From NCBI GenBank assembly GCA_005883405.1, contig VBGG01000136.1, positions 1 to 49,742 of the forward strand: DNA of 49,742 nt, given 5' to 3'. Below, one piece after another: positions 3,733 through 42,632 of the stretch. The notes below the pieces were generated by a model, which had not been told where the DNA came from, did not search any database, and worked only from the letters and a program-made list of their open reading frames with translations. The first letter of the stretch is position 1; the number at the start of each line of letters is the position of its first letter. The stretch comes from Chloroflexota bacterium (lineage in GTDB: Bacteria > Chloroflexota > UBA6077 > CF-72). Position numbers and translations under genes: made by a program.

Positions 3733-3841
3733 CCTCTCCCTCTGGGAGAGGCCGCGCGCAGCGCGGGTGAGGGTGGCATACGAGCACGAACGCTTCGGCT
3801 GTACGCCACCCTCACCCCTGCCCTCTCCCAGAGGGAGAGGG
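3733..3841. repeat. Compound palindromic intergenic element, family C copy 1
   Basis: CCTCTCCCTCTGGGAGAGG hairpin, then GGGTGAGGGTGGC, a variable core, GCCACCCTCACCC, then a CCCTCTCCCAGAGGGAGAGGG hairpin. Five further copies lie in the window. Confidence 0.9.
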
Positions 3842-13717: not shown

Positions 13718-13820
13718 GACGTTTTCGCAATGCCCGGTACTTCCCGGGCTCTGGTTGCGTTGTTGCTCCTGAACCATACTTGCCCGCCCCCGATCGGAAG
13801 CCCAGGAGCTAACTGCCAAC

Positions 13821-15134
13821 ATGCGCGTAACTGACCTCCTTCGCACGATGGACATCTTCGAGGCGATCCCCTCTGAAGAGCTCGAGACCATCGCTCAACT
13901 GCTGCGCGAGCGCCGGTTGGCCGAGGCAGAGGTCCTCTGCCGCCAGGGAGATCCCGGCGACGCGCTCTTCATCGTGACCGGCGGCCGCATTCGCCTGTCG
14001 ACCAGCGACCCCAGCGGCAACGAGAAGGTCCTCACCTACTTCACCGACGGCCAGTTCTTCGGTGAGATGTCGTTGCTCACCGGCGCGCCGCGTTCGGCCA
14101 CGGCGACCGCCGAGACCGACAGTCAGCTGCTGGTGCTCGACAAGGGTTCCTTCGACGAGCTGCTCGCCAGCCACCCCGAAATCATGCGCGAGATGCTCAA
14201 GGTCGTCTCGCAGCGCACGCTCCAGACCAACCAGCAGCTACTGGCCGATGAGCCGGGCAGCGCCGTGACGGTCGGTGCGGGCCACGTGTACGCCATCTTT
14301 TCACCTCGTGGCGGCGCGGGCAAGACCATGCTGGCGATCAACATGGCCGTCAGGCAGGCGAAGGAGCAGCCGGAGCGGACCGCGCTTCTGGATCTCAGCC
14401 TGACCTTCGGCCACGCCGCCGCGCTGCTCGGTTTGAAACCCGAGACCTCGCTGGCCGCGGTTCCCGCCGAGAGCCTTTCGGACTTCGATCGCCGTACGCT
14501 TGGCCAGTACCTGGTCGAGCACCCCACCGGACTGCAGGTCCTGGTGGCAGGCACCCGCCCCGAAGAGGGTGAGGTGGTTACGGCAGCGCACGTCCGCGCG
14601 GCGCTCGGCACCATGAAGCGCCAGTTCAGCGCCACGTTCGTCGACTGCGGCAGCACCTTCGATGAGCCGACGATCGCCGCGCTCGAGATGGCCGACCGCA
14701 TCCTGGTCGTGTGTACGCCCGAACTGAACACCCTGCGGGACGTACGCGAGTGCCAGCGAGTGTTCGGCGAGATCATCCACCTGGACGGGAAGCGGGTCAA
14801 CTTCATCTTCAACCACAACCAGCCCTTCTCGGTGCTGGCGCGAGAGCAATTCGAGTCGGCGCTCGAGCAGGAGATGAGTTTCGAGCTACCCCACGCGGGC
14901 GAAGCCGCCTACAAGGCTGCCAACCGCGGTGAGCCGCTGGTGCTCAGCCACGGCGGGTCACCCTACAGCAAGGCTGTGGAGAAGATCGTCCAGGCCATCG
15001 TCCCCGCCGAGCCCAAGGGGAAGAAGCGCTCACTCAACGTCATCCATCATGCGACAGCAGCCAGGCCTGCCAGGACGGGTCCCCGCCCGGCGGGTGGACT
15101 GCTCGGCGTTCTGCGCGGCAAGCGCGCCAGTTAG
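13821..15134 (+). CDS. Cyclic-nucleotide-binding domain fused to a ParA/MinD/CpaE-like P-loop ATPase (copy 1)
   Basis: N-terminal cNMP-binding pattern (GDPGDALFIV..G, FFGEMSLLTGAPRSATA). Walker A is SPRGGAGKT (Lys codon 14322-14324). No HTH domain. Confidence 0.8.
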   Translation: MRVTDLLRTMDIFEAIPSEELETIAQLLRERRLAEAEVLCRQGDPGDALFIVTGGRIRLSTSDPSGNEKVLTYFTDGQFFGEMSLLTGAPRSATATAETDSQLLVLDKGSFDELLASHPEIMREMLKVVSQRTLQTNQQLLADEPGSAVTVGAGHVYAIFSPRGGAGKTMLAINMAVRQAKEQPERTALLDLSLTFGHAAALLGLKPETSLAAVPAESLSDFDRRTLGQYLVEHPTGLQVLVAGTRPEEGEVVTAAHVRAALGTMKRQFSATFVDCGSTFDEPTIAALEMADRILVVCTPELNTLRDVRECQRVFGEIIHLDGKRVNFIFNHNQPFSVLAREQFESALEQEMSFELPHAGEAAYKAANRGEPLVLSHGGSPYSKAVEKIVQAIVPAEPKGKKRSLNVIHHATAARPARTGPRPAGGLLGVLRGKRAS

Positions 15135-15148
15135 GAGGCCCCCAAGCT

Positions 15149-16372
15149 ATGCCGTCGCGAGTGCTCGAGCTGCTGCGCTCGATGGATCTGTTCACCGAGC
15201 TTGACGACCACGAGCTGGGCAAGATCACCCGTCTGCTCAAGGAGCTCAAGATCGCTGAGAACGAGGTGATCTTCAATCAGGGTGACCCTGGCGACGCCCT
15301 GTACATCGTGTTGCAGGGTCGTGTGCGCATCGCCACCACCGACAGTTTTGGTCGCGAACGCGTGCTGGCCTTCTACGGGCCGGGCGAGTTCTTCGGCGAT
15401 ATGGCGGTGCTGACGGGCGACCCGCGTTCGGCGACCGCCGGCGCGTCATCCGATGTACGCCTGCTGCAGCTGCGCAAGGACGACTTCGATGTGCTGGTGG
15501 CCACCAACATCGGCGTCATGCGCGGCATGATGCGGGTGATGGTCGAACGCCAGGCGGCACTCAACACGCGCCTGACGCAAGAGGTCGGCGCCACCCAGGG
15601 CGACGTGCGCGGCCAGGTGACGGTCGTCTTCTCTCCGCGCGGTGGCGCGGGCCAGACCGTGCTGACCACCAACCTCGCCGCCGCGCTGGCGCAGCTCACG
15701 CCTGACCGCGTCGTGGCCGTTGATCTGGATCTGCTGTTCGGACACATGCCGATGCTGCTGGATCTGGTGCCGCGCACCGCGCTAGCCGCCATTACCCCGG
15801 CCGCGATTCGGGCGCTCGACCGCGACAGCCTTGCCTACTACCTCACCAAGCACGCCGAGTCGTCGCTGCGCGTGCTGGCGGGTACGCTGCGACCCGAGGA
15901 GAGCGAGCTGGTCACTGGCGAGCACGTGCGCGCCATCCTCGAGCAGCTGCGTCGACAGTTCGTCCACATCGTCGTCGACGCGGGCTCGCGGTTTTCGGAG
16001 CCGTGTCTGGCGGCGCTCGAGGCGGCTGACCAGGTCATCGTGCTGAGCACGCCCGAGGCAGGTGCCGCTCACGCCACCCAGGAGACCCAGCGCGTACTGC
16101 GCGACCTGCTGGCGGTGCCCGCTGAGCGCGTCCGCTTCGTCCAGAATCAGCCGCGGCCGTACGGCAAACTGTGCGCCAACGAGCTGGCATTTCAGGTTGG
16201 TAGCGACCGTGTCCTCGAGGTCCCCTTCGGTGGCGAAGAGGTGAGCAAAGCGGGTCTGACCGGCTTCCCGCTGGTGATGAGCCGCACCGGCAATCCCACC
16301 ACCAAAGCGATCATGCGCCTGGCTCGGGACCTGGAAGAGAGCAGTCGCGAGCTGCTCGCGCTCTCGCGTTAA
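15149..16372 (+). CDS. Cyclic-nucleotide-binding domain fused to a ParA/MinD/CpaE-like domain (copy 2, Walker A Lys replaced by Gln)
   Basis: Same architecture as copy 1 (GDPGDALYIV, FFGDMAVLTGDPRSATA). Walker A is SPRGGAGQT (CAG 15653-15655). An AGGAGG SD overlaps the copy 1 stop. Confidence 0.8.
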   Translation: MPSRVLELLRSMDLFTELDDHELGKITRLLKELKIAENEVIFNQGDPGDALYIVLQGRVRIATTDSFGRERVLAFYGPGEFFGDMAVLTGDPRSATAGASSDVRLLQLRKDDFDVLVATNIGVMRGMMRVMVERQAALNTRLTQEVGATQGDVRGQVTVVFSPRGGAGQTVLTTNLAAALAQLTPDRVVAVDLDLLFGHMPMLLDLVPRTALAAITPAAIRALDRDSLAYYLTKHAESSLRVLAGTLRPEESELVTGEHVRAILEQLRRQFVHIVVDAGSRFSEPCLAALEAADQVIVLSTPEAGAAHATQETQRVLRDLLAVPAERVRFVQNQPRPYGKLCANELAFQVGSDRVLEVPFGGEEVSKAGLTGFPLVMSRTGNPTTKAIMRLARDLEESSRELLALSR

Positions 16373-16380
16373 AACCCACC

Positions 16381-16491
16381 CCCTCTCCCTCTGGGAGAGG
16401 GCTGGGGCGAGGGGTGCGTATTTTTCGCGAACGCTAGATCTCGTACGCACCCCTCACCCGCGCTACGCGCGGCCTCTCCCAGAGGGAGAGG
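16381..16491. repeat. Compound palindromic intergenic element, family C copy 2
   Basis: Same terminal hairpins and GGGTG-type inner stem as copy 1. It lies between convergent gene ends. Confidence 0.9.
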
Positions 16492-21698: not shown

Positions 21699-22262
21699 AT
21701 GGCCAAAAGTCGCGTAAAAGCTCGGGCCGAAAAGGATTCGGCCATCGACGACCTTGCCACTCGTCTCGGCCGCGCTGAGATCGCCGTACTCACCGAGTAC
21801 CGCGGGCTCAGCGTGTCCGAGCTGCAGGATCTGCGCGGTCGGCTGCGACCACTCGGAGTGGACTACGTCGTCGCCAAGAACACGCTGACCCGCTTCGCCG
21901 CCGAGCGCAGCGGCCGCACTGGCATCGTCGACGACCTGGTCGGCCCGACCGCCATCGCCTTCGGCGCTGACCCGGTAGCCACCGCCAAGGCGCTGCAAGA
22001 CTACACACGCGTCAATCGCGTGTTCGTGCTCAAGGCGGGGCTGCTGGGCGACCGGCGGATCGACCGCAAAGAGGTCGAGCAGCTAGCGAGCCTGCCGCCC
22101 GCCGAGCAGCTGCGGGGTCGCGTCTTCGGCATGATCGTTGGGCCGCTGCAGCGGACGGTCAGCGTGCTGTCCGCGCCGCTCGCCGGTATGGCGCGACTGA
22201 TCGACGCGCGCCGTCAACAACTTGAAGAGACTGGCGGCGAGGCCGCAGCAGGAGGTGGAGAT
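21699..22262 (+). CDS. rplJ: 50S ribosomal protein L10 (uL10). It has no stop codon of its own and the frame continues into rplL.
   Basis: L10-like sequence through ...[22 protein letters not shown]. The next codon is the rplL ATG in the same frame (single 317 aa ORF in the track). Confidence 0.85.
22250..22257 (+). promoter_or_regulatory. Shine-Dalgarno sequence AGGAGGTG for rplL, embedded in the rplJ reading frame
   Basis: It lies 5 nt upstream of ATG 22263. Confidence 0.75.
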
Positions 22263-22652
22263 ATGGCATCGGTTGACGAGCTGGTAGAAAACTTGAGTGA
22301 TCTGAAGGTGCTCGATCTGGCGAATCTGGTCAAGCGCCTCGAAGAGGCCTGGGGTGTGTCCGCGGCTGCTGTCGCGGCGCCAGTCGCGGTCGGCGCGGGC
22401 CCGGCGACCGACGGCGCGGCGGCTGCGCCCGTCGAAGCGCAAACCGAGTTCGACGTGGTCTTGAAGGACTTCGGCGCAAAGAAGATCGAAGTCATCAAGG
22501 TCGTGCGCGAGTTGACCAACCTGGGTTTGAAAGAGGCCAAGGATCTGGTCGAAGCAGCGCCCAAGCCAGTCCTGGAGAGCGTTGCCAAGGACGCGGCCGA
22601 CGCCGCCGCGGGCAAGCTCCGCGACGCGGGCGCCACAGTAGACGTAACGTAG
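22263..22652 (+). CDS. rplL: 50S ribosomal protein L7/L12 (bL12)
   Basis: 129 aa. An N-terminal dimerisation helix, an Ala/Pro hinge and the C-terminal domain [35 protein letters not shown]. Confidence 0.95.
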
Positions 22653-22658
22653 CCTGGC

Positions 22659-24260
22659 TCAGGTGTTCAGCGGGAGCCGCACGACAAAGCGGCTCCCGCC
22701 GTCCATCGGAAACTCTGCACAGATGCTGCCGCCGTGCATCTCTACGATCTGGCGGCTGACGTAGAGCCCCAGCCCGAGGCCGCTGCGGCTGCCACTGCCG
22801 TGGGCCTGGTAGAAACGCTCGAAGATGTCAGCCCGCTTCTCGGGCGGAATGCCGAGCCCATGGTCGCGCACTGACAGCTCGGCGTGCTCATCGTCGCCGC
22901 GCGCCAGGACCACCTGGATGTCGCCACCATTGGGGCTGTACTTCACGGCGTTGTCGAGCAGGTTGGTGATGACCTGCTCCACACGGAGCGCATCGACGTA
23001 TGCTTCGAGTGACTCCGGCAGTTCCAGATCGATCGTGTGCCACGCACAGGTCGCCTGGGTGTTGGCCACCAGCTGATCGACGAGCGGTACCAGGTCCGTC
23101 GTCTCGCGTTCGAGCTCGAGCTTGCCAGTCTCCAGGCGCGAGACGTCGAGCAGCTGGTGGACGAGCCGAGACAGCCTGGCGGCCTGACCGTTGACCACGC
23201 CGAACGCCTCCTGGATACGCAACGCGTCGACATCGCCGCGGTGCGCCCTGCGCGTCATCAGCTGCGCTTGCACCTGAAGGGTGGCGATCGGCGTCCTGAG
23301 CTCGTGCGACGCGATCGACAGGAACTCATCCCGCAAGCGCAGCGCTTCCTCCACTTCGCGTCGAGCGCGGACCAGCTCGGTCACTTCGACGGCGTGCGCA
23401 AGCAGCAGCTGGCCCCGATCGTCGCTGAGCGGCTGGCAGATGAAATTGAAGAAGCGGGCAAGCTGTCCGTCCGGACAGCCGATGCGCAGCTCGCGGGCGG
23501 AAACCGGCTGACCGGTCGAAAGCACCTGATCGAAGATGGCCTGGCTCACCTCGGCGAACTCGGCGAAAACCTCTCGGAACGGCTTGCCGAGCGCGTCGGT
23601 GTTTCCGCCAGTCAACGCCTGGGCAACCGGATTCAAGAACTCGATCGTGTGCTCTGGCCCGCGCAGCAGCGTGATGGCCGCTGGTAAGCCAGAAAGGATC
23701 TCGCGCAATCGATCGCGCTCGCGGTCGGCCTCGGCGCGCGCGGCCTGCTCACGGATCAGCTCTTCGTGCGCCTCGCGCGCCCGATATTGGTCGGACACGT
23801 CGAAGCCGACACCCTGCAGGAACAGGAGCTGTCCCTCCTCGTCGCGCACAAGGCGTGCCTCGGCGTGCACCCACACCGTCTCACCACCGCGCGTCATGAC
23901 GCGGACGACGTCGCGGAAGGGCGCGCCCGTCAAACACAGCGCGCCGAACTTCTGACTCACTCGATCCCTATCGTCGGGGTGCGTCTGGCGATACCACAGC
24001 ACGGGATCGCTGACCCACTCTTCCTGCGTGAAGCCCAGCAGCGACTCGATCTGTGGGCTGACGTAGATCTCATTCTTCCCACCAGACAACGAGGCCAGGA
24101 ACGTGACCGCGGGTATCTGCTCGATGAGCGTTCGATAACGGACTGCAGCCAGGAGACGGCTCTGTTCGAGCGGTTCGTCCGCACGGGTGTTGCTTGCACC
24201 CAGCTGAACGCCGACTGATGCAAGCGATGCGAGCGTGGCCAGACCGTCTTCTATCGTCAC
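22659..24260 (-). CDS. Soluble sensor histidine kinase (PAS-PAS-HisKA-HATPase_c)
   Basis: H-box SIASHELRTPIATL, N-box DNAVKYSP, G-boxes DHGLGIP and GLGLGLYVSRQIV. No TM segments. The GTG start at 24260 overlaps the hydrogenase stop (GTGA); the alternative ATG at 24344 lies inside the hydrogenase gene. Confidence 0.88.
   Translation of the reverse strand: MTIEDGLATLASLASVGVQLGASNTRADEPLEQSRLLAAVRYRTLIEQIPAVTFLASLSGGKNEIYVSPQIESLLGFTQEEWVSDPVLWYRQTHPDDRDRVSQKFGALCLTGAPFRDVVRVMTRGGETVWVHAEARLVRDEEGQLLFLQGVGFDVSDQYRAREAHEELIREQAARAEADRERDRLREILSGLPAAITLLRGPEHTIEFLNPVAQALTGGNTDALGKPFREVFAEFAEVSQAIFDQVLSTGQPVSARELRIGCPDGQLARFFNFICQPLSDDRGQLLLAHAVEVTELVRARREVEEALRLRDEFLSIASHELRTPIATLQVQAQLMTRRAHRGDVDALRIQEAFGVVNGQAARLSRLVHQLLDVSRLETGKLELERETTDLVPLVDQLVANTQATCAWHTIDLELPESLEAYVDALRVEQVITNLLDNAVKYSPNGGDIQVVLARGDDEHAELSVRDHGLGIPPEKRADIFERFYQAHGSGSRSGLGLGLYVSRQIVEMHGGSICAEFPMDGGSRFVVRLPLNT
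22670..22699 (+). terminator. Possible rplL terminator hairpin lying inside the 3' end of the convergent kinase gene
   Basis: 11-bp GC stem GCGGGAGCCGC / GCGGCTCCCGC with an 8-nt loop, 18 nt after the rplL stop. No U-tract. Confidence 0.35.
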
Positions 24261-26026
24261 CGCTGCGCGCCGACTGTCGGCGAATGTCGCCGTTCCACCA
24301 CGCGGCCGTCGCCAACGTACATGTGCACGCCGCACGGGAGGCACGGGTCGAAGCTACGCACCGTGCGCATGATGTCGATGCCCGTGAACGAGTCCGGCCC
24401 GTTCTCCTCGAACAGCGGCGTGTTCTGGATAGCGTCCTCGTAGGGCCCGGGGGCGCCGAACGAGTCGCGCGGACTGGCATTCCAGGCGGTTGGCGGATAC
24501 GGGTGATAGTTGGCGATCTTGCCGTTTTGAATCACCGCGTGGTGGGATAATCCGCCGCGTACGGCTTCGTGGAATCCGCAGCCGATGGCCTCATCCGGCA
24601 CGCTGAAGCTGGACCAGGTGTCGGTGCGGCCCGCGTACAGCTCACTCAGGCCCTGTTCGGCAAAGTACAGGGCGGCCGCAGCGGCGTACGCCTGGAAGTA
24701 CGAGCGTGCCCGATCCCGTTCGAGCGTATTGGCCCAGCGCGGAATCCGCCACTCGAGCTCGGCTTCGGGCAGATTGGCAGTCTTCGGCAAGCCGATGCTG
24801 ACTTTGCCGTCGGCAGCCTTGATCGAGCCGAAATCGACGCGTTCGGCGAGCGCCGTGGCCCACAGGCGAGCCAGCGGTCCGCCGCCCGTGTCGAGCGCCA
24901 GCAGTGACTGCGAGCGAACGTCAAACCAGCGCGGCGACATGACCCACGTGTAGCGGCCGCTGAAGTCGCGGTTCTGCGGTTTGGGCAGCGTCGTCTGGTT
25001 CCATGGGTGGCGTTTGTCGATCGGGTTGCCGAGCGGGTCCCTGTCCACGAACGTCTGTTGCTCCTGCCAGTCGTCGTAGAAGGAGCTGCCGAGCAAGATG
25101 CGGATGCCCAGGTTGATCTCGACCAGGTCGGTGGTGATCAGCTGGCCGTCGACGACGATGCCCGGTGTGACGTGCATGTTGCGGCCCCAATTGCTCATCG
25201 TCTCGTAGCGGAAGTCGCATGCTTCGGGGTCCTGAAAAGCGCCCATGCACGCTAGCAGCACACGACGCTGTCCGACCGCCTCGTAGCCAGGCAGGGCCTG
25301 GTAGAAGAAGTCGAACAGGTCATCGTGGAGCGGGACCATCCTCTTGATGAACTCGATGTACCTGGTGAGGCGGACGATGTACTCCGAGAAGAGCTGCACG
25401 CTCGGCACCGTGCCGACGCCGCCCGGATAGAGCGTCGACGGATGCACGTGCCGTCCTTCCATCAGACAGAACATTTCGCGCGCCAGGCGGCTCATCTGCA
25501 GTGCTTCGCGGTACAGCGCCCCTTCGAACGGGTTGAGCGCACGCATGATGTCGGCGATGGTTCGATAGCCGTGCCACTCGACGTGTGGAGCCGCGGTGTT
25601 CTCCGCGCGACCGAGGACGCCCGGGTTGGTTTCCCGCACCATCTGCTCGCAGAAGTCCACGCCGACCATGTTGTCCTGGAAGAGGTTGTGGTCGAACATG
25701 TACTCGGCCGCTTCACCGCAGTTGATGATCCACTCGGCGAGTGCAGGCGGTCGCACATTGAATGCCATGTTCTGCGTGTACACCGCGCAGGTGGCGTGGT
25801 TATCGCCGCAAATCCCGCAGATTCGACTGGTGATGAAGTGCGCGTCGCGCGGATCTTTGCCGCGCATGAAGACGCTATAGCCGCGGAAGATGGATGACGT
25901 CGTACGGCAGTCGGCCACCTGGCGATTGGCGAAATCGATTCGGGTGTGTACGCCGAGACTGCCGATGACCCGCGTGATCGGATCCCACGACATCTCGACC
26001 AGGCCGCTGCCGTTGTCGTGCGACAC
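24257..26026 (-). CDS. hhyL: [NiFe]-hydrogenase large subunit, group 1h (formerly group 5, high-affinity) type
   Basis: 589 aa. The N-terminal Ni-Fe ligand motif is TSRICGICGDNHA. The C-terminal motif is SFDPCLPCGVH followed by a 21 aa tail. Confidence 0.85.
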   Translation of the reverse strand: MSHDNGSGLVEMSWDPITRVIGSLGVHTRIDFANRQVADCRTTSSIFRGYSVFMRGKDPRDAHFITSRICGICGDNHATCAVYTQNMAFNVRPPALAEWIINCGEAAEYMFDHNLFQDNMVGVDFCEQMVRETNPGVLGRAENTAAPHVEWHGYRTIADIMRALNPFEGALYREALQMSRLAREMFCLMEGRHVHPSTLYPGGVGTVPSVQLFSEYIVRLTRYIEFIKRMVPLHDDLFDFFYQALPGYEAVGQRRVLLACMGAFQDPEACDFRYETMSNWGRNMHVTPGIVVDGQLITTDLVEINLGIRILLGSSFYDDWQEQQTFVDRDPLGNPIDKRHPWNQTTLPKPQNRDFSGRYTWVMSPRWFDVRSQSLLALDTGGGPLARLWATALAERVDFGSIKAADGKVSIGLPKTANLPEAELEWRIPRWANTLERDRARSYFQAYAAAAALYFAEQGLSELYAGRTDTWSSFSVPDEAIGCGFHEAVRGGLSHHAVIQNGKIANYHPYPPTAWNASPRDSFGAPGPYEDAIQNTPLFEENGPDSFTGIDIMRTVRSFDPCLPCGVHMYVGDGRVVERRHSPTVGAQR

Positions 26027-26035
26027 GCGTGGCCT

Positions 26036-27073
26036 CTACGTCGGGTCCGTGATCTCGGGTTCTTCGGCTCGCGGCTGGCGGTGTCCCGCGCAGCGTTCTG
26101 GCTCTCGGTTCATTGAAGCCAGCGTGAATTGACGTAATGAGCGAACGGTCTTGCCGTAAACGTTCACGGCGGCCGTCGACATGTGTGCGCCCGGCGGCTC
26201 GTCCATGAACGGAACGAACTTGTCGGGGAAGCCGGGCATGGTGCAGCCAATGCATACGCCGCCCACATTGGGGCAGCCGCCGATGCCGTTGATCCAGCCC
26301 CGCTTGGCCACATTGCACTGCACGACGGGCCCCCAGCAGCCCAGCTTGACGATGCACGACCTGGCGCCGTAGCTCGCGGCAAAGTCAGCCTGCTCGTAGT
26401 AGCCGCCACGGTCGCACCCCTCGTGTACCGTGTCGGTGAACAGCCACGTCGGTCGGAGCATCGCGTCGAGCGGGATCATGGGCGCAGCGCCGGTCGCCTG
26501 ACGCAGCAGATAGTACAGGACTTCCATGAAATTGTCGGGTTGGATCGGGCAGCCCGGTACGCACACGATCGGCAGTCCGCCGGACGACGTCCACGACCAG
26601 CCGAGATAATCGGGCAGACCCATGCAGCCCGTTGGATTGCCAGCCATGGCGTGGATACCGCCGTAGGTCGCGCAGGTGCCTGCGCCGACCGCCGCCCACG
26701 CCCGCGGCGCGAGCCGGTCGATCCATTCGCAGGTCGTGATTGGCTGACCGCTCTCCGGATCGGTGCCGATGGCGGCCCAGTAGCCCTCGGCTTTATTCCG
26801 TTCGTCAGGGATGGAGCCCTCGACGACGAGGATGAATGGGCCGAGCTCACCCGAGGCGGCACGCTCGAGGATACGCACGAAGTTGCAGCCGACCTCGTAG
26901 GCCAGGACGGGATTGTGCAGGTGGACCTTCGGCAGCCCGGGCAACGCACCGCTCAACACGTCCTCGATGCTCGGGTTGGTGGCCGCCGTCATGGCGATGG
27001 TGTCGCCGTCGCACCCCAGCCCCGCCGTCAGCCAGACGATGTGCATCTCGGCGATCTCGGTGTCCCCTTGCAT
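26036..27073 (-). CDS. hhyS: [NiFe]-hydrogenase small subunit without a Tat signal, group 1h type
   Basis: 345 aa. It starts MQGDTEIAEMHIVWLTAGLGCDGD with no RRxF leader. Multiple Cys clusters (GCPIQPD, CWGPVVQCN, CIGCTMPGFPD). It lies 9 nt upstream of the large subunit. Confidence 0.85.
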   Translation of the reverse strand: MQGDTEIAEMHIVWLTAGLGCDGDTIAMTAATNPSIEDVLSGALPGLPKVHLHNPVLAYEVGCNFVRILERAASGELGPFILVVEGSIPDERNKAEGYWAAIGTDPESGQPITTCEWIDRLAPRAWAAVGAGTCATYGGIHAMAGNPTGCMGLPDYLGWSWTSSGGLPIVCVPGCPIQPDNFMEVLYYLLRQATGAAPMIPLDAMLRPTWLFTDTVHEGCDRGGYYEQADFAASYGARSCIVKLGCWGPVVQCNVAKRGWINGIGGCPNVGGVCIGCTMPGFPDKFVPFMDEPPGAHMSTAAVNVYGKTVRSLRQFTLASMNREPERCAGHRQPRAEEPEITDPT

Positions 27074-27120
27074 GCCCGCCTCGAGACCATCTTACGCTTA
27101 TGCCGGCCGAAACTTGACTC

Positions 27121-27235
27121 CCTCTACCTCTGGGAGAGGCTTTATCCAGGGGTGAGGGTGGCGTACATGCACGAACGCTCTCGCCCCTTAGCCACCCTCA
27201 CCCGCGCTGCGCGCGGCCTCTCCCAGAGGGAGAGG
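27121..27235. repeat. Compound palindromic intergenic element, family C copy 3
   Basis: Same modules as copy 1. Left linker is CTTTATCCAG and right linker GCGCTGCGCGCGG. It lies between the tyrA stop and the hhyS start. Confidence 0.9.
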
Positions 27236-27251
27236 CGGCCCCCCTTGGGAA

Positions 27252-28208
27252 CTACTTCTCCTTCTCCCGACCGAAGCGGCCGAAGAGGCTGCCGGTGAGC
27301 ATGGAGCGGGTGGTCGGCAGGGGGTTTTCGCCTTCGGCAGGCTGACCCTGGGCGCGACCGGCCAGCCAGTCCTGGTGCAGGCTCCGCGCCTGGTCGAACT
27401 GCGCCTTGAGCTCGGGGCTGTCCGCCTGGATCGCGTCGCGCAGCGTCGAAAGTTCGGCGATGTACAGGTCCAGACGACGGGCAATATTGTCGCGATTGGT
27501 CCGCACGATGTCCGCAAACATGCGCGGGTCGCTCTCGCTGAGGTGCGTCGCGTAGGCGAAGCCGCCCGCCGCGACCGACGCCGTTTCGCGCCAGCTACGC
27601 TCGCGTCCGAGGTGACCGATCAATGCCACCGACATCAGATACGGCAGGTGGCTCACGGAGGCGACGAGTCCGTCGTGCTCGTCGGGATCGAGGAAGTACG
27701 GCGAGGCGCCGAGGGTCTCCACCAGCCGAACCGCCTCGTCGATGGCGTCGCGTTCGGTGGTCGGCAGCGGCGCCAGACACCACACGGCCCCCTGGAACAG
27801 CCTGGCATCTGCCGCATCCGGACCCGTTTCCGTCTTGCCCGCCATCGGGTGGCCACCAACAAACCGCACGCCTCTCGGCAGCAGCTCGGCCGCCCAGCTC
27901 AGCACGGTGGCCTTGGTGCTGCCAGTATCCACCACCAGCGCGTGCACGGGCAGAAGCGGGGAGATCTCTTCGAAGAGCGCCTTCATGGCTCCGACAGGCG
28001 TCGAGACGATCACCAGGTCCGCATCGGCCAGCGCGTCGCGCAGCGAGGCACGCCGATCGATGGCCTTGACTGCCTGGGCGCGGCGCAAGTTGTCGCCCGA
28101 GGCGTCGTAGCCGGCGATCTGCGTCTGCGGCCGGCTCACCTTGAGCGCCAGGCCGATCGAGGCGCCGATCAGCCCCGTCCCGAGAATCGCCACCCGGTTA
28201 TGCGCCAC
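27252..28208 (-). CDS. tyrA: Prephenate dehydrogenase
   Basis: N-terminal Rossmann motif VAILGTGLIGASIGLALK and GGHPMAGKTETG, typical of TyrA. Confidence 0.88.
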   Translation of the reverse strand: MAHNRVAILGTGLIGASIGLALKVSRPQTQIAGYDASGDNLRRAQAVKAIDRRASLRDALADADLVIVSTPVGAMKALFEEISPLLPVHALVVDTGSTKATVLSWAAELLPRGVRFVGGHPMAGKTETGPDAADARLFQGAVWCLAPLPTTERDAIDEAVRLVETLGASPYFLDPDEHDGLVASVSHLPYLMSVALIGHLGRERSWRETASVAAGGFAYATHLSESDPRMFADIVRTNRDNIARRLDLYIAELSTLRDAIQADSPELKAQFDQARSLHQDWLAGRAQGQPAEGENPLPTTRSMLTGSLFGRFGREKEK

Positions 28209-28974
28209 TGGCCAGCACCCCCAGGAAGTTGTTGACGATCTCCCGTCCGCCGTTCAGGTAGGCATCGACCACCGGCCGCGCGCCTGGCAGGAAGAGTACG
28301 GCGAGCAGGATCAGCGGCCCGTACCGCTGCAGCGGCAGCAGCGCCACTTTGACCGGCCGCGGCGAGAGCCCGAACAGGAATCCGAACCCGTCGAGCGGCG
28401 GCACAGGCAGCAGGTTGAAGACCGCCAGCAACACGTTGATGTTGATGAATGCCTGCACGTAGGGGAAGACGGCGCGGTCCAGGCCGAGGCTGGTGTACGA
28501 GACGATGACGACCATTACTGCCGCGACCAGCACGTTCGACACGGGCCCAGCCAGCGACGACAACGCCCATCCCAGATTGGGGTTGCGCATGTGGCCAGGA
28601 TTGATGGGCATCGGTCTGCCCCAGCCGATCGGACCGATCAGGATCATCAGCGTGCCGAGCGGATCGAGGTGCTTCAGCGGGTTCAGCGTGAGGCGGCCGA
28701 CGCGACGCGGAAGGTCGTCGCCGAACAAGGTCGCCACGAACCCGTGGCTGAACTCGTGCACCGTGATGGCCAGGATGAGCGCGACGAAGAACGGCAAGCG
28801 CGCGGTGAGCCCGCCCAGCCCGCCTTGGGCACCGGTGAGCAGGCCCATCTGGTTGAGCAGCAGCAGCACCAGTACCGCCAGACCGACCCACTGGATGGGA
28901 GTAATGCCCGGCTGTTTACGCGGCGGCCCCGGCGGCGGTGCGCCGGAGCTATCGACGGCGGTCTGGGCGCACAC
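28198..28974 (-). CDS. Site-2 protease family (peptidase M50) membrane metalloprotease (start uncertain)
   Basis: HEFSHG zinc motif in a TM helix, NPLKHLDPLGT, and multiple TM segments. GTG 28974 is the first start downstream of the repeat elements. Confidence 0.8.
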   Translation of the reverse strand: MCAQTAVDSSGAPPPGPPRKQPGITPIQWVGLAVLVLLLLNQMGLLTGAQGGLGGLTARLPFFVALILAITVHEFSHGFVATLFGDDLPRRVGRLTLNPLKHLDPLGTLMILIGPIGWGRPMPINPGHMRNPNLGWALSSLAGPVSNVLVAAVMVVIVSYTSLGLDRAVFPYVQAFININVLLAVFNLLPVPPLDGFGFLFGLSPRPVKVALLPLQRYGPLILLAVLFLPGARPVVDAYLNGGREIVNNFLGVLASGA

Positions 28975-29027: not shown

Positions 29028-29135
29028 CCTTCTCCGTCTGGGAGAGGGTCGGGGTGAGGGAGCCATACGAGCGGAAGCGTTCGCGCTCGTGCGCCACCCT
29101 CACCCCTGGATAAAGCCTCTCCCAGAGGGAGAGGG
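29028..29135. repeat. Compound palindromic intergenic element, family C copy 4
   Basis: Same modules. The right linker CTGGATAAAG is the complement of the copy 3 left linker. It lies between the divergent M50 gene and argC. Confidence 0.9.
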
Positions 29136-30150: not shown

Positions 30151-31373
30151 CCACCTCGCTCTCGAAACCGTTCGCCATGCTCAAAGACGGCTCGTCGACG
30201 TCGGCCAGAGGCTTTCGCGCGGGCGCGGTGGCAGCCGGTATCAAAGCCTCGGGCAACCCCGACCTCGGCATGTGGGCTTCCGAGGCTCCGTGTGTCGCCG
30301 TGGCGACGTTCACCCAGAACAGCTTTCCGGCCGCGCCGGTCATCCTCAGCCGCGACCGGCTCAGGACGCATCCGACGGCGCACGCAGTGGTCTTCAATGC
30401 TGGCAACGCCAACGCGTGCAACGGCTCGACGGGACTTGACGATGCCCGTGAGATGTCCGAGCTGGCGGCCCAGGCGCTCGGCATCGCGCCCGAGCTGATC
30501 CTGGTCGCCTCGACTGGCATCATCGGCCACCGATTGCCGATGGACCTCGTTCGAACCGGCATCCCGCGCATCCAGCTCAGTCCCGACGGCGGCCACGCGG
30601 CGGCGCTTGCCATCATGACCACCGACACGCGGCCCAAGGAGTGCGCCGTCTCGCTCGAGATCGATGGTCGCGAAGTACGCATCGGCGCGATGACGAAAGG
30701 TGTGGGCATGATCCACCCCAACATGGCGACGATGTTGGCCTTCATCGGCACCGATGCCCGCCTGGAGCCACGCTTCGCTGCCACCGCGCTCAAGCACGCC
30801 GTCGATCGCACCTTCAACATGACCACGGTGGACGGCGACACCAGCACCAACGACTCGTGCTTTCTGCTGGCCAACGGTCTGTCGGGTGCGCCGACGCTCG
30901 TCGGCGGGAGCGCCAAAGCGGAGCGGTTCGTCGTCGCGCTGGAGGCGGTCTGCACCGATCTGGCCCGCAAGATGGCCGCGGATGGCGAGGGAGCCTCCAA
31001 GCTCCTGCAGGTGGACGTGACTGGCGCGGCCAGCGAAGCCGATGCACGCGCCGCCGCCCGCGCCGTAGTCGGCTCGAGTCTGGTCAAGGCGGCCCTCCAC
31101 GGGGAGGACCCGAACTGGGGCCGCGTGTTCGCCGCGGTGGGTAACTCCGCCGCCCGTGTCGACACCACCCGTGCCGCGTTGTGGATCGGCTCGATCCAGG
31201 TCGCCCGCGACGGTGGCGGCACGGGCGTCTCGAAGGACGAGGCGCGCGCGCAGATGCACGCTTCCGAGGTCACCATGCGCGTCGACCTCGGCCTCGGCAG
31301 CGCGTCCGCTCGCGCATGGGGCTGTGACCTCACCGAAGCCTACGTGGTCGAAAACAGCGCCTACTCAACGTGA
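30147..31373 (+). CDS. argJ: Bifunctional ornithine acetyltransferase / N-acetylglutamate synthase
   Basis: 408 aa. Autoprocessing-site context HPNMATMLAFIGTDA. ATGA overlap with argC. Confidence 0.92.
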   Translation: MTTSLSKPFAMLKDGSSTSARGFRAGAVAAGIKASGNPDLGMWASEAPCVAVATFTQNSFPAAPVILSRDRLRTHPTAHAVVFNAGNANACNGSTGLDDAREMSELAAQALGIAPELILVASTGIIGHRLPMDLVRTGIPRIQLSPDGGHAAALAIMTTDTRPKECAVSLEIDGREVRIGAMTKGVGMIHPNMATMLAFIGTDARLEPRFAATALKHAVDRTFNMTTVDGDTSTNDSCFLLANGLSGAPTLVGGSAKAERFVVALEAVCTDLARKMAADGEGASKLLQVDVTGAASEADARAAARAVVGSSLVKAALHGEDPNWGRVFAAVGNSAARVDTTRAALWIGSIQVARDGGGTGVSKDEARAQMHASEVTMRVDLGLGSASARAWGCDLTEAYVVENSAYST

Positions 31374-32314
31374 CGCTGGCGCACCTTTCGACAGATCAGA
31401 AGACCGCGGCCCTGATCGAGGCGCTGCCGTACATCTGCGAGTACGTCGGCAAGACGATCGTGGTCAAGGTCGGCGGATCGGTGGGCGAGGAGGGTACCGT
31501 CCTGGACGATGTCGTCTGGCTCAAGCGCCTGGGCATCAACCCGGTGCTGGTGCACGGCGGCGGCCCGCAGATCTCGGATCGCCTGAGCCAGCTGGGCGTC
31601 GAGACGCGCTTCGTCGAGGGTAGGCGCTTTACCGACGAGCAGACCCTGGAAGTCGTCCACGAAGTCCTGATGCGCATCAACGGCGACTTCGTGTCCTAGC
31701 TCAACGGTCACAAGATCCCGGCCTGGGATTGCAATGGGTTGGATGGTCAGATGCTGCAGGCGCGACTGCGCGACGAACGCCTCGGCCTGGTCGGCGAAGT
31801 TGCCGCGGTGAACCTGCGCCCGATCAAGTCACTGGTCGAGCAGGGCTACGTCGTGGTCATCGCGCCGCTTGCGGCTGGCCCCGACTCGCAGCCGCTCAAC
31901 GTGAATGCCGACACCGTGGCTGGCGAAGTGGCTCGGGCGTTAGGCGCCGAGAAGCTGGTGCTGTTCACCGACGTGCCAGGTGTGCTCGACCGCGAGGGCG
32001 CTGTCCTGCCCGAGCTGAGCCGCGAGCAGGTCGAGCGCATGCTCGACGATGGCACGATCCGGGGCGGCATGATCCCGAAGATTCAGGCCTGCCTGCGCGC
32101 ACTCGAAACGGTGCCACGCGTCCACGTCCTGGATGGGCGTGTGCCACACGCGTTGATTCGCGAACTGTTCACCACCGAGGGTGTCGGTACCATGCTGACT
32201 TCGTTCCGGGTTCCGGGTTCCGAGTTCCGAGTTGAGAGCGCCACCTCAATGGACAACGCGGAACGCGGAACGCGGAACGCGGAACAAGCTACCGGGAAAG
32301 GAACCAGCGTCTGA
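31370..32314 (+). pseudogene. argB: Acetylglutamate kinase interrupted by one in-frame TAG (31697-31699). The C-terminal ~36 aa are encoded by a heptamer repeat.
   Basis: The two track ORFs (31370-31699 and 31739-32314) are in the same frame. Together they give a full-length ArgB (KVGGS, HGGGPQI, NVNADTVAG, GGMIPK). GTGA overlap with argJ and ATGA overlap with argD. Confidence 0.8.
32203..32285. repeat. Heptamer-array inverted repeat (family B) inside the 3' end of argB, with arms at 32203-32233 and 32257-32285
   Basis: GTTCCGGGTTCCGGGTTCCGAGTTCCGAG faces GCGGAACGCGGAACGCGGAACGCGGAAC. Confidence 0.85.
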
Positions 32315-34435: not shown

Positions 34436-34469
34436 CCGCGCTGCGCGCGGCCTCTCCCAGAGGGAGAGG
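34425..34469. repeat. Family C half-element (copy 5): GCCACCCTCACCC, then linker GCGCTGCGCGCGG, then the CCTCTCCCAGAGGGAGAGG hairpin
   Basis: It is identical to the right half of copy 3. The left half is absent. Confidence 0.85.
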
Positions 34470-42523: not shown

Positions 42524-42632
42524 CCTCTCCCTTTGGGAGAGGCCGCGCGCAGCGCGGGTGAGGGGTGCGCACGACTTCAAACGTTTGCGGCTACACGCAC
42601 CCCTCACCCGGCCCTCTCCCAGAGGGAGAGGG
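42524..42632. repeat. Compound palindromic intergenic element, family C copy 6
   Basis: Same modules as copy 1 (left linker CCGCGCGCAGCGCG). It lies immediately after the ftsZ stop. Confidence 0.9.

Follow-up and report, generated by a model that had tools for sequence, protein, structure and literature searches.

The stretch of DNA analysed here, called the window throughout, is a whole metagenome-assembled contig of 49,742 bp (VBGG01000136.1, proteins TMF03272-TMF03304) from a Chloroflexota bacterium, and the system of interest is a set of three minus-strand open reading frames (ORFs) lying head to tail within it: hhyS and hhyL, for the small and large subunits of a [NiFe]-hydrogenase, and a gene for a soluble sensor histidine kinase whose start overlaps the end of hhyL (Table 1). 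An earlier note on this DNA gave the same coordinates and order for the three ORFs and the same flanking genes, tyrA and the convergent rplL. Of these, tyrA precedes hhyS on the minus strand, and rplL is, we find, fused in frame to rplJ. The note went on to suggest a new H2- or redox-sensing module, and that suggestion is weighed below.

Table 1. Features of the hydrogenase-kinase locus and of the dispersed palindrome, in window coordinates; kinase residues are counted from GTG 24260
Feature	Coordinates	Strand	Evidence
hhyS, group 1h [NiFe]-hydrogenase small subunit, 345 aa	26036..27073	-	Pfam Oxidored_q6, NiFe_hyd_SSU_C; 547 bits vs 5AA5_A HofK
hhyL, group 1h large subunit, 589 aa	24257..26026	-	Pfam NiFeSe_Hases; 1044.5 bits vs 5AA5_C
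GTGA overlap: kinase start GTG 24260-24258, hhyL stop TGA 24259-24257	24257..24260	-	sequence reading
Soluble sensor histidine kinase, 533 aa from GTG 24260	22659..24260	-	Pfam PAS_3, PAS_4, HisKA, HATPase_c; orthologues; AlphaFold2 model
Kinase N-terminal amphipathic helix, residues 3-16, IEDGLATLASLASV	24213..24254	-	56-protein alignment; AlphaFold2
Kinase disordered linker, residues 17-29			AlphaFold2 model
Kinase N-cap helix, residues 30-47			AlphaFold2 model
PAS1 core, residues 52-154			AlphaFold2 model
PAS1 with N-cap helix, residues 30-154	23799..24173	-	tblastn, hidden Markov model, PDB sequence search
Kinase coiled coil, residues 156-190			AlphaFold2 model
PAS2, residues 195-292, generic PAS_4	23385..23678	-	Pfam, AlphaFold2 model
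Kinase core: DHp/HisKA residues 294-378, CA/HATPase_c residues 386-530	22671..23381	-	Pfam, conservation, AlphaFold2
tyrA-hhyS intergenic region, one REP-like palindromic copy at 27121-27235	27074..27251	.	repeat count, fold energy
Dispersed intergenic palindrome	3733-3840, 16382-16491, 27121-27235, 29029-29134, 42524-42631; single arm 34451-34469

The junction between hydrogenase and kinase is a tight one. The end of hhyL reads ...GCG CAG CGG TGA and shares four bases with a GTG in the kinase frame; the only in-frame ATG, GTG or TTG codons 5' of the first PAS domain (PAS1) are GTG 24344, GTG 24335 and GTG 24260, and since the next candidate, TTG 24089, already lies within PAS1, every plausible kinase start overlaps hhyL. 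The earlier note had reached this conclusion and had recognised GTG 24260 with its GTGA overlap, but it took the codon at 24344 for ATG and missed GTG 24335. Gene callers on a 99%-identical contig (P0001, L081) picked the 533-aa start at the overlap, and NCBI record TMF03275.1 calls the kinase from a 561-aa start. By direct reading, a GAGG-like Shine-Dalgarno sequence stands 6 nt upstream of hhyS and of hhyL and none precedes the kinase start, which fits coupling of the kinase to hhyL by termination and reinitiation. Scanned for promoters and terminators, the relevant strand of 22400-28400 showed nothing above chance and no sigma-70-like promoter. At the other end of the kinase gene its stop and that of rplJL are 6 bp apart (22652-22659), as in L081 (39 bp in L082), and, with no terminator-like structure between them, the convergent rplJL and kinase transcripts must overlap. 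Two database entries call for comment: the NCBI name of the small subunit (TMF03276.1), "hydrogenase expression protein HypE", is a misannotation, and in a sister metagenome-assembled genome (MAG) only a 296-aa "HAMP domain-containing histidine kinase" was called (TME36152.1).

The kinase has the Pfam domains PAS_3, PAS_4, HisKA and HATPase_c, and its AlphaFold2 model (mean predicted local distance difference test score 81.8) has no membrane segment, in line with the soluble PAS-PAS-HisKA-HATPase protein that had been predicted. Its kinase motifs are intact, the phospho-acceptor His319 lying within SHELRTP and H319, N437 and G494/G496/G498 being invariant. Searched with Foldseek, the model of the kinase core comes nearest to HK853 of Thermotoga maritima (36% identity, TM-score 0.85), the partner of which is a stand-alone receiver. 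Foldseek with the kinase model and a PDB sequence search with PAS1 returned generic PAS-kinase matches and no clue to a cofactor, and no NCBIfam kinase equivalog was matched by the kinase above cut-off.

Genes that might be expected to accompany these three were not found around them. Pfam scans of essentially all long ORFs in the 49.7 kb detected no hyp gene, no hycI/hupD protease and no receiver gene, and hence no cognate response regulator for the kinase; tblastn of the window with HypA/B/C/D/E, HycI and REC queries from related operons (best E 0.15) agreed, as both do with the earlier note. Queries from related operons for HhyE, DUF5947, DUF6084 and the accessory protein of ~354 aa likewise found none in the window (tblastn, best E 0.15).

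Hydrogenase class and small-subunit subtype

The class of the hydrogenase was judged against solved structures, a reference set that comprised groups 1h, 1a/1b/1d/1e and 2a (Huc), group 2b sequences not being among them. HhyL scores 1044.5 bits with 5AA5_C, which is HofG of Ralstonia eutropha and the archetype of group 1h, the next best match reaching 151.8 and Huc 120; HhyS scores 547.5 bits with 5AA5_A (HofK), against 138 for the next best and 105-106 for Huc. HhyL is also 72-78% identical to the group 1h large subunits at at least 80 loci of species-representative genomes (L001-L080), a comparison set to which the source genome of the window does not belong and in which some ORF starts are heuristic. 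Aligned with HofG, it carries the L1 motif TSRICGICGDNHA and the L2 motif SFDPCLPCGVH, matching the group 1h signature ([ST]SRICGICGDNH with SFDPCLPCGVH), and has exactly 21 residues after His568, the stretch that a maturation protease would remove. HhyS starts MQGDTEIAEMHIVWLTAGLGCDGD, has no RRxFxK twin-arginine leader, contains the Asp-bearing GCDGD motif of group 1h, and keeps 11 of 11 invariant Cys columns. Apart from the Cys columns, these marks of both subunits had been noticed from the bare sequence, and the L1, L2 and Asp-bearing motifs attributed to group 1h, an assignment that the bit scores uphold. The margin leaves little room for a different class: by sequence the window hydrogenase is a group 1h enzyme and not a group 2 sensor, and the 1h match of its large subunit, together with the 21-aa tail, departs from the 2b type, which is not known to have a C-terminal extension. 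The canonical 1h operon partners, which are typical of the family and not strictly defining, are missing next to hhySL; Thermomicrobium is likewise without HhyE (PMC6883350).

Within group 1h, HhyL of the window and its relatives (the window group) forms a cluster with its counterparts from L078 pair 1, L060, L013 and L058. It differs from canonical HhyL conservatively, and the same kind of C-terminal tail is present in all 1h sequences. Changes of the kind seen in sensors, such as tail loss or non-conservative replacements at the active site or in the channels, were looked for in HhyL, and only conservative substitutions were found. As HhyL shows no sign of being a crippled sensor, and single S-L pairs accompanied by a complete maturation set occur in several relatives, the window hydrogenase is probably also catalytic.

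The small subunits linked to PAS proteins form a subtype of their own. In 44 listed loci of the comparison set there is a second small-subunit gene with the gene for a PAS protein right after it, ~3.6 kb upstream of the canonical hhyS-hhyL, two more such copies being frameshifted. A neighbour-joining tree of 132 small subunits, built on identity-based distances, places these extra copies, L078 pair 1, L058, L001 and the window group on one side and 77 canonical sequences on the other, with a bootstrap of 50% for the exact split, 94% if L058 and L001 may move, and 98% for the window group alone. Diagnostic residues (window numbering) set the window group with the extra copies and HofK with the canonical side: in PAS-linked subunits residues 25-27, right after the proximal GCDGD, are TIA where canonical ones have SVS, residue 93 is Asn and not Ile, residue 320 Ser and not Thr, and residue 171 Cys and not Asn, four positions before Cys175 of PGCP, which we take to be a proximal-cluster ligand; at residue 115, Cys occurs in 88-93% of PAS-linked and 19% of canonical sequences. 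The C-terminal motif EPKWRHxxxxLTTGY divides them more sharply still, being present in 73 of 75 canonical HhyS and in none of 57 PAS-linked small subunits (44 extra copies, nine of the window group, and those of L078 pair 1, L058, L013 and L060). Window HhyS shows every one of these marks, with TIA25-27, N93, C171 and S320, no KWRH...LTTGY, and also Cys115. Because the invariant Cys columns are kept, the PAS-linked small subunits should still bind their clusters.

The strict absence of the LTTGY tail from PAS-linked subunits suggests that it is a partner-docking element. The idea that its loss merely tracks the loss of HhyE was rejected, as L013, L058 and L060 keep HhyE-like genes and yet have a tail-less HhyS and PAS1; tail loss follows the presence of PAS1. 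An LTTGY-type C-terminus is found in canonical HhyS of several phyla, for example at L004 8847-9917.

Both forms of the enzyme stand in tandem in a Candidatus Binataceae MAG (L078 8231-21755), the clearest sensor-plus-enzyme layout found. Its first 1h pair runs NarL-type regulator, tail-less hhyS, hhyL, PAS-HWE kinase, and its second comprises canonical hhySL with a NifU-like gene, DUF5947, DUF6084, a 354-aa protein and a protease.

The kinase and its input module across group 1h loci

A search of 5.8 billion proteins for orthologues of the kinase yielded full-length matches in a graded identity series (99, 82, 73...41%), among them a 59%-identical kinase that carries the name Candidatus Limnocylindria (P0027). 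All 10 of the 10 relatives with readable contigs, from at least five gene contexts, carry the kinase gene at the 3' end of a [NiFe]-hydrogenase operon. The tyrA-hhyS-hhyL-kinase / rplJL synteny and the 4-bp overlap recur as in the window at kinase identities of 99% (L081) and 70% (L082, L083). At 58-59% (L084-L086) the order, in another genomic place, is hycI-hypA-hypC-DUF6390-hhyS-hhyL-377aa-kinase, and further relatives have DUF6390-hypC-hhyS-hhyL-371aa-hycI-hypA-kinase-REC (L091, 49%), DUF6390-x-hypC-hhyS-hhyL-381aa-hycI-hypA-kinase (L088, 47%), hypF-C-D-x-E-hhyS-hhyL-364aa-hycI-hypA-hypB-kinase (L090, 44%) and hypCDE-hhyS-hhyL-354aa-hycI-hypA-58aa-kinase-REC (L087, 43%). Throughout the relatives at 43-58% identity (L084-L091), in contexts otherwise unrelated, the kinase is the last or second-to-last operon gene and overlaps whatever gene precedes it, by 4 bp also in the gene calls of L087 and L088. 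Two hybrid kinases of 910 aa, whose similarity to the window kinase is confined to the first PAS region (55% identity), are likewise found among hyp and hydrogenase genes. The kinase is thus a conserved terminal member of these hydrogenase operons, and both the adjacency and the overlapping start, the conservation of which the earlier note had wished to see tabulated, are retained.

Since the distant relatives have hyp genes and the protease in the operon, the lack of maturation genes is a derived feature of the window lineage, a minimal form in which S, L and kinase were kept together and overlapping and the accessory genes would lie elsewhere. Stand-alone receivers directly follow the kinase in L087 and L091, and the partner of the window kinase is probably an orphan receiver encoded elsewhere in the genome. 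Two peculiarities of the wider lineage may be recorded (L084 5303-6052 and 8890-10023; also L086-L088, L090 and L091): a DUF6390 protein replaces the HhyE/DUF5947/DUF6084 set, and a protein of ~354-381 aa, 35-52% identical to that of canonical operons and absent from the window, is kept right after hhyL.

The link between kinase and hydrogenase extends to the first PAS domain alone. In tblastn, residues ~41-167 of the kinase, the first PAS, were matched in 52 of the 80 listed 1h loci at 36-56% identity (E 1e-34 to 1e-46), in Acidobacteriota, Planctomycetota, Myxococcota, Binatota and others. The shared motif is YRxLxEQIPAVxF...YVSPQIExLLGFxQxEWxxDPxxWYxQxHPxDR, and an alignment of 56 hydrogenase-linked proteins shows the N-terminal PAS1 to be preceded by an amphipathic helix, L-x-E-A-x-x-x-L-x-x-L-A, of which the window version is IEDGLATLASLASV; the window thus has, in the same locus as its tail-less HhyS, the signalling protein with N-helix and PAS1 that goes with this subtype. 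A hidden Markov model (HMM) of PAS1 built without the window lineage gives the window kinase 192.6 bits, scores below 10 bits on the second PAS domains of linked proteins (below 0 on PAS2 of L084/L085), and finds no domain match in PAS2 of the window. An early impression that this HMM was exclusive (at least 150 versus below 50 bits within the listed loci) was dropped, as matches in a large database form a continuum.

What follows PAS1 varies: a PAS-PAS-HisKA_3 kinase with a REC-GerE regulator after it in Acidobacteriota (L004), a kinase of HWE/HisKA_2 type in Binataceae (L078), a hybrid kinase in Planctomycetota (L058) and a HisKA kinase in Gemmataceae (L001). In two Myxococcota MAGs, at the end of the 1h operon, the N-helix and PAS1 are fused to a PP2C/SpoIIE phosphatase (L013 15219-17798, L060 14348-16183), which would be a phosphatase-linked version of the system. 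Fusion of one PAS1 to swapped outputs is a pattern typical of a conserved input domain.

Proposed sensing through the hydrogenase, and alternatives

The reading that we favour, and to which we give slightly better than even chances, is that hhyS, hhyL and the kinase gene form one functional module in which a group 1h hydrogenase is served by a dedicated soluble kinase that signals on its redox state. The observed features, namely the 1h identity, the gene overlap, the conserved adjacency, the input module shared between swapped outputs and the small-subunit subtype, would be tied together in such a module by a physical contact, by H2 or redox as the signal and by a downstream target, all three of which we infer. 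The three genes would be transcribed together, translation of the kinase would depend on that of hhyL, and the N-helix and PAS1 of the kinase would bind the cytoplasmic hydrogenase, likely at the tail-less small subunit. H2 oxidation at the Ni-Fe site would reduce the iron-sulfur chain of the small subunit, and the kinase would read that redox state and alter its autophosphorylation at His319. The phosphoryl group would then pass to a response regulator encoded elsewhere in the genome (in relatives a stand-alone receiver or, in Acidobacteriota, one of NarL type), which might adjust hydrogenase expression or persistence metabolism.

Direct coupling of this kind is favoured by the retention of one input module through exchanges of output, by the strict association of PAS1 with a subtype of small subunit whose C-terminus and proximal-cluster surroundings are altered, by the direct adjacency or overlap of the genes, and by L078, where regulator, tail-less S, L and PAS kinase stand in that order before a canonical operon with all accessory genes. 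The earlier note's suggestion of a new sensing module comes out strengthened by the linked PAS input module and the matching small-subunit subtype, with H2 sensing itself still a matter of inference. Two findings that the note would have taken as refuting it, a large subunit outside 1h and relatives with no kinase beside the hydrogenase, did not materialise, so that both checks turned out in its favour.

Several points weigh against this reading. There is no response regulator in the window; HhyL keeps all catalytic motifs and a tail of the protease-processed type, the operons of relatives carry full hyp sets, and the enzyme shows no sign of being a dedicated sensor of low activity. PAS1 bears no recognisable cofactor-binding signature, its best solved relatives in a PDB sequence search being PAS_3 domains (E 4e-10). 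Tandem PAS_3 proteins without the N-helix reach 109-156 bits per repeat with the PAS1 HMM, compared with 167-237 for linked proteins, and one of them (P0066, Actinomycetota) is not near any hydrogenase. The subtype tree is a neighbour-joining one only, the sample of at least 80 loci is dominated by Acidobacteriota, and in Edaphobacter aggregans the extra hhyS homologue is not expressed (PMC8027828, SI-2).

The main rival explanation, unlikely in our judgement though it has to be taken seriously, makes the kinase a conventional PAS sensor that responds to something else, for example to O2, to the redox or energy state of the cell or to carbon starvation. It would stand in the operon only as a regulator of hydrogenase genes, without any physical or redox connection to the enzyme, and the tail-less HhyS would be an isoform that serves another electron partner. 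Carbon limitation and stationary phase induce group 1h enzymes, which are not known to be H2-induced (PMC8027828; 10.1101/457697; PMC13098282), regulators are often encoded beside their targets, PAS1 sits within the generic PAS_3 family with relatives outside hydrogenase loci, and in Acidobacteriota a gene for a NarL-type regulator separates the kinase gene from canonical hhySL. A sensor of this sort would, however, have no reason to co-occur strictly with one small-subunit subtype (57 of 57 tail-less), nor would it call for the extra small-subunit gene that the PAS protein gene directly follows in 44 listed loci; it leaves unexplained why S, L and kinase stay contiguous and overlapping even after hyp and accessory genes have separated, and why the input module is kept as outputs are exchanged.

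It seems quite improbable that the signal runs the other way, the kinase or PAS module acting on the hydrogenase itself as an assembly or maturation checkpoint or as a post-translational regulator of activity or localisation. In most relatives the kinase does follow hycI, hypA or hypB, among maturation genes, PP2C phosphatase outputs (L013, L060) act on proteins, and the receivers beside the kinase in L087 and L091 have no DNA-binding domains; yet the HisKA/HATPase core is complete, conserved and of the HK853 type, which normally signals to a receiver, the acidobacterial versions are paired with a DNA-binding NarL-type regulator, and we know of no hydrogenase maturation step that needs a histidine kinase. 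Incidental adjacency, through an unrelated gene downstream of hhyL in a MAG or an assembly artefact, might be raised for a metagenome-assembled contig in which at least one gene, argB with its in-frame TAG, probably holds an error or is a pseudogene, but it is effectively refuted by conservation, the arrangement having been assembled independently from several samples at 99%, 70% and 43-58% kinase identity and the input module being enriched in 1h loci across phyla.

A broader and more tentative proposal, for which we put the chances somewhat below even, is that group 1h has its own, independently evolved H2-sensing apparatus, in which a tail-less small-subunit subtype with altered surroundings of the proximal cluster (extra Cys171 and Cys115) docks an N-helix-PAS1 module that couples the H2-dependent redox state of the enzyme to interchangeable outputs in at least five phyla. 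The outputs combined with the module comprise four classes of kinase and PP2C phosphatases. Many bacteria that oxidise atmospheric H2 would then use the scavenging enzyme itself to sense H2 or the flux of electrons. The window would have the smallest version, of three genes, with catalysis and sensing combined in a single enzyme, and hydrogenase-based H2 sensing would have had a second, independent origin besides group 2b. Atmospheric H2 oxidation by 1h and 2a enzymes is the main biological H2 sink and a major survival strategy of soil bacteria. The sensors that control it were still described as unknown in a 2026 paper (PMC13098282), and a kinase wired to a 1h enzyme is a concrete candidate for the missing one, with representatives in Chloroflexota, Acidobacteriota, Planctomycetota, Myxococcota and Binatota. 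The mutual exclusion of LTTGY tail and PAS module offers a structural hypothesis for partner docking on 1h enzymes, and cultured carriers of a related system, Acidobacteriaceae KBS 83 and Pyrinomonas methylaliphatogenes, make the idea directly testable.

Other features of the window and comparison with known systems

The remainder of the window is made up of housekeeping and other genes. According to Pfam matches of essentially all long ORFs, their order is metH, ahpC, fabF, fabF, fabD, two genes for cNMP-binding proteins, a LysM glucosaminidase gene and trmI on the left, then secE, nusG, rplK, rplA, rplJ-rplL, the kinase gene, hhyL, hhyS, tyrA and an M50 peptidase gene, and on the right argC, argJ, argB, argD, prmC, prfA, hisS, ftsZ, ftsA, ftsQ, murC and ftsW. 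The ribosomal genes rplJ (L10) and rplL (L7/L12) form a single 317-aa ORF, 21699-22652 (+), with no stop between L10 (residues 8-174) and L12 (189-316). Ahead of the L12 ATG at 22264 stands a strong Shine-Dalgarno sequence internal to the ORF, AGGAGGTGGAGAT, so that free L12 and an L10-L12 fusion could both be made. The fusion is kept in relatives (317 aa in L081; 327 aa, with the same internal Shine-Dalgarno sequence, in L082 and L083), and the occurrence of the exact protein on 16 contigs shows that it is not an assembly error. At 13773-16369 (+), two adjacent genes join cyclic-nucleotide-binding domains to a ParA/AAA_31-like ATPase and are kept beside the same ribosomal cluster in L082.

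In argB (31370-32314) an in-frame TAG at 31697-31699 (+) splits the gene, the Pfam domain AA_kinase matching over positions 1-77 before it and 106-233 after it; L082, a relative at 70% kinase identity, has Tyr at this site (FVSYLNGH versus FVS*LNGH), and the TAG stems from a one-base nonsense mutation or from an error of sequencing or assembly, or else marks a pseudogene. Five intergenic sites and a single further arm (Table 1) carry a dispersed palindrome, built of paired CTCTCCCNNNGGGAGAGG hairpins ~90 bp apart around a second GC-rich stem, the pattern of which has 22 matches where 0.27 are expected. It resembles repeats of the repetitive extragenic palindromic (REP) or miniature inverted-repeat transposable element (MITE) type, and the copy between tyrA and hhyS, with a fold energy of -102 kcal/mol (z-score -4.7), may serve as a terminator or insulator upstream of hhyS.

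Among characterised enzymes the window hydrogenase is closest to HofKG of R. eutropha (PDB 5AA5) and Hhy of Mycobacterium smegmatis, with which it has in common the L1 and L2 motifs, GCDGD, the want of a twin-arginine leader, a cytoplasmic location and the large-subunit tail. It differs from canonical group 1h in a HhyS without KWRH...LTTGY and with TIA for SVS, Asn93 for Ile and Cys171 for Asn, positions at each of which HofK is canonical; in the absence of HhyE (NifU-like), DUF5947, DUF6084, protease and hyp genes, which are present in at least 75 of the 80 listed canonical loci; and in the translational coupling of hhyL to a kinase gene.

In layout the nearest parallel is with the group 2b systems, HoxBC-HoxJ-HoxA of R. 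eutropha and HupUV-HupT-HupR of Rhodobacter, which share with the window the order of S, L and soluble PAS histidine kinase and the absence of a twin-arginine leader. The sensors of group 2b are not known to have a C-terminal tail. The large subunit of the window, unlike theirs, is of group 1h and has such a tail, no NtrC-type regulator is adjacent, and the enzyme is probably catalytic; the window kinase rises above no NCBIfam kinase-equivalog cut-off. The L078 order is that of hoxA-hoxB-hoxC-hoxJ and lies upstream of a catalytic operon. In group 2b, as is proposed for the window, it is the hydrogenase that feeds the H2 signal into a two-component system (HydDB table, PMC5037454; PMC13098282), and HydDB counts as sensory only groups 2b, 2c and [FeFe] group C, describing 1h as a respiratory H2 scavenger (PMC5037454). 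One hydrogenase input with interchangeable outputs is seen also in the putative sensory enzymes of [FeFe] group C (kinase-, chemotaxis- and phosphatase-linked) and of group 2c [NiFe] (diguanylate-cyclase-linked), but these enzyme families are unrelated, their signalling domains being fused or adjacent to a different class of hydrogenase (PMC5037454).

Within group 1h itself, an extra acidobacterial hhyS homologue was mentioned by Giguere et al. 2020 (SI-2; PMC8027828), who cite Greening et al. 2015 and place it "in a putative two-component system" in a single sentence with no analysis; in strain KBS 83 this gene is induced 13-fold in stationary phase (PMC8027828). It shares with the window the small-subunit subtype and the N-helix and PAS1 on the adjacent kinase. 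The acidobacterial set differs in having an orphan small subunit, a HisKA_3 kinase and an adjacent NarL-type regulator, upstream of a complete canonical operon, whereas the window has a full S-L pair coupled to a kinase of the HisKA type, with no regulator or accessory genes nearby. We found no description in the literature of a full 1h S-L pair with a kinase, of the shared PAS module or of the tail-less subtype. We therefore read hydrogenase-kinase sensing of the 2b kind and the acidobacterial extra hhyS as already known, and the 1h-lineage form with a full S-L pair, by analogy with them, as what is new.

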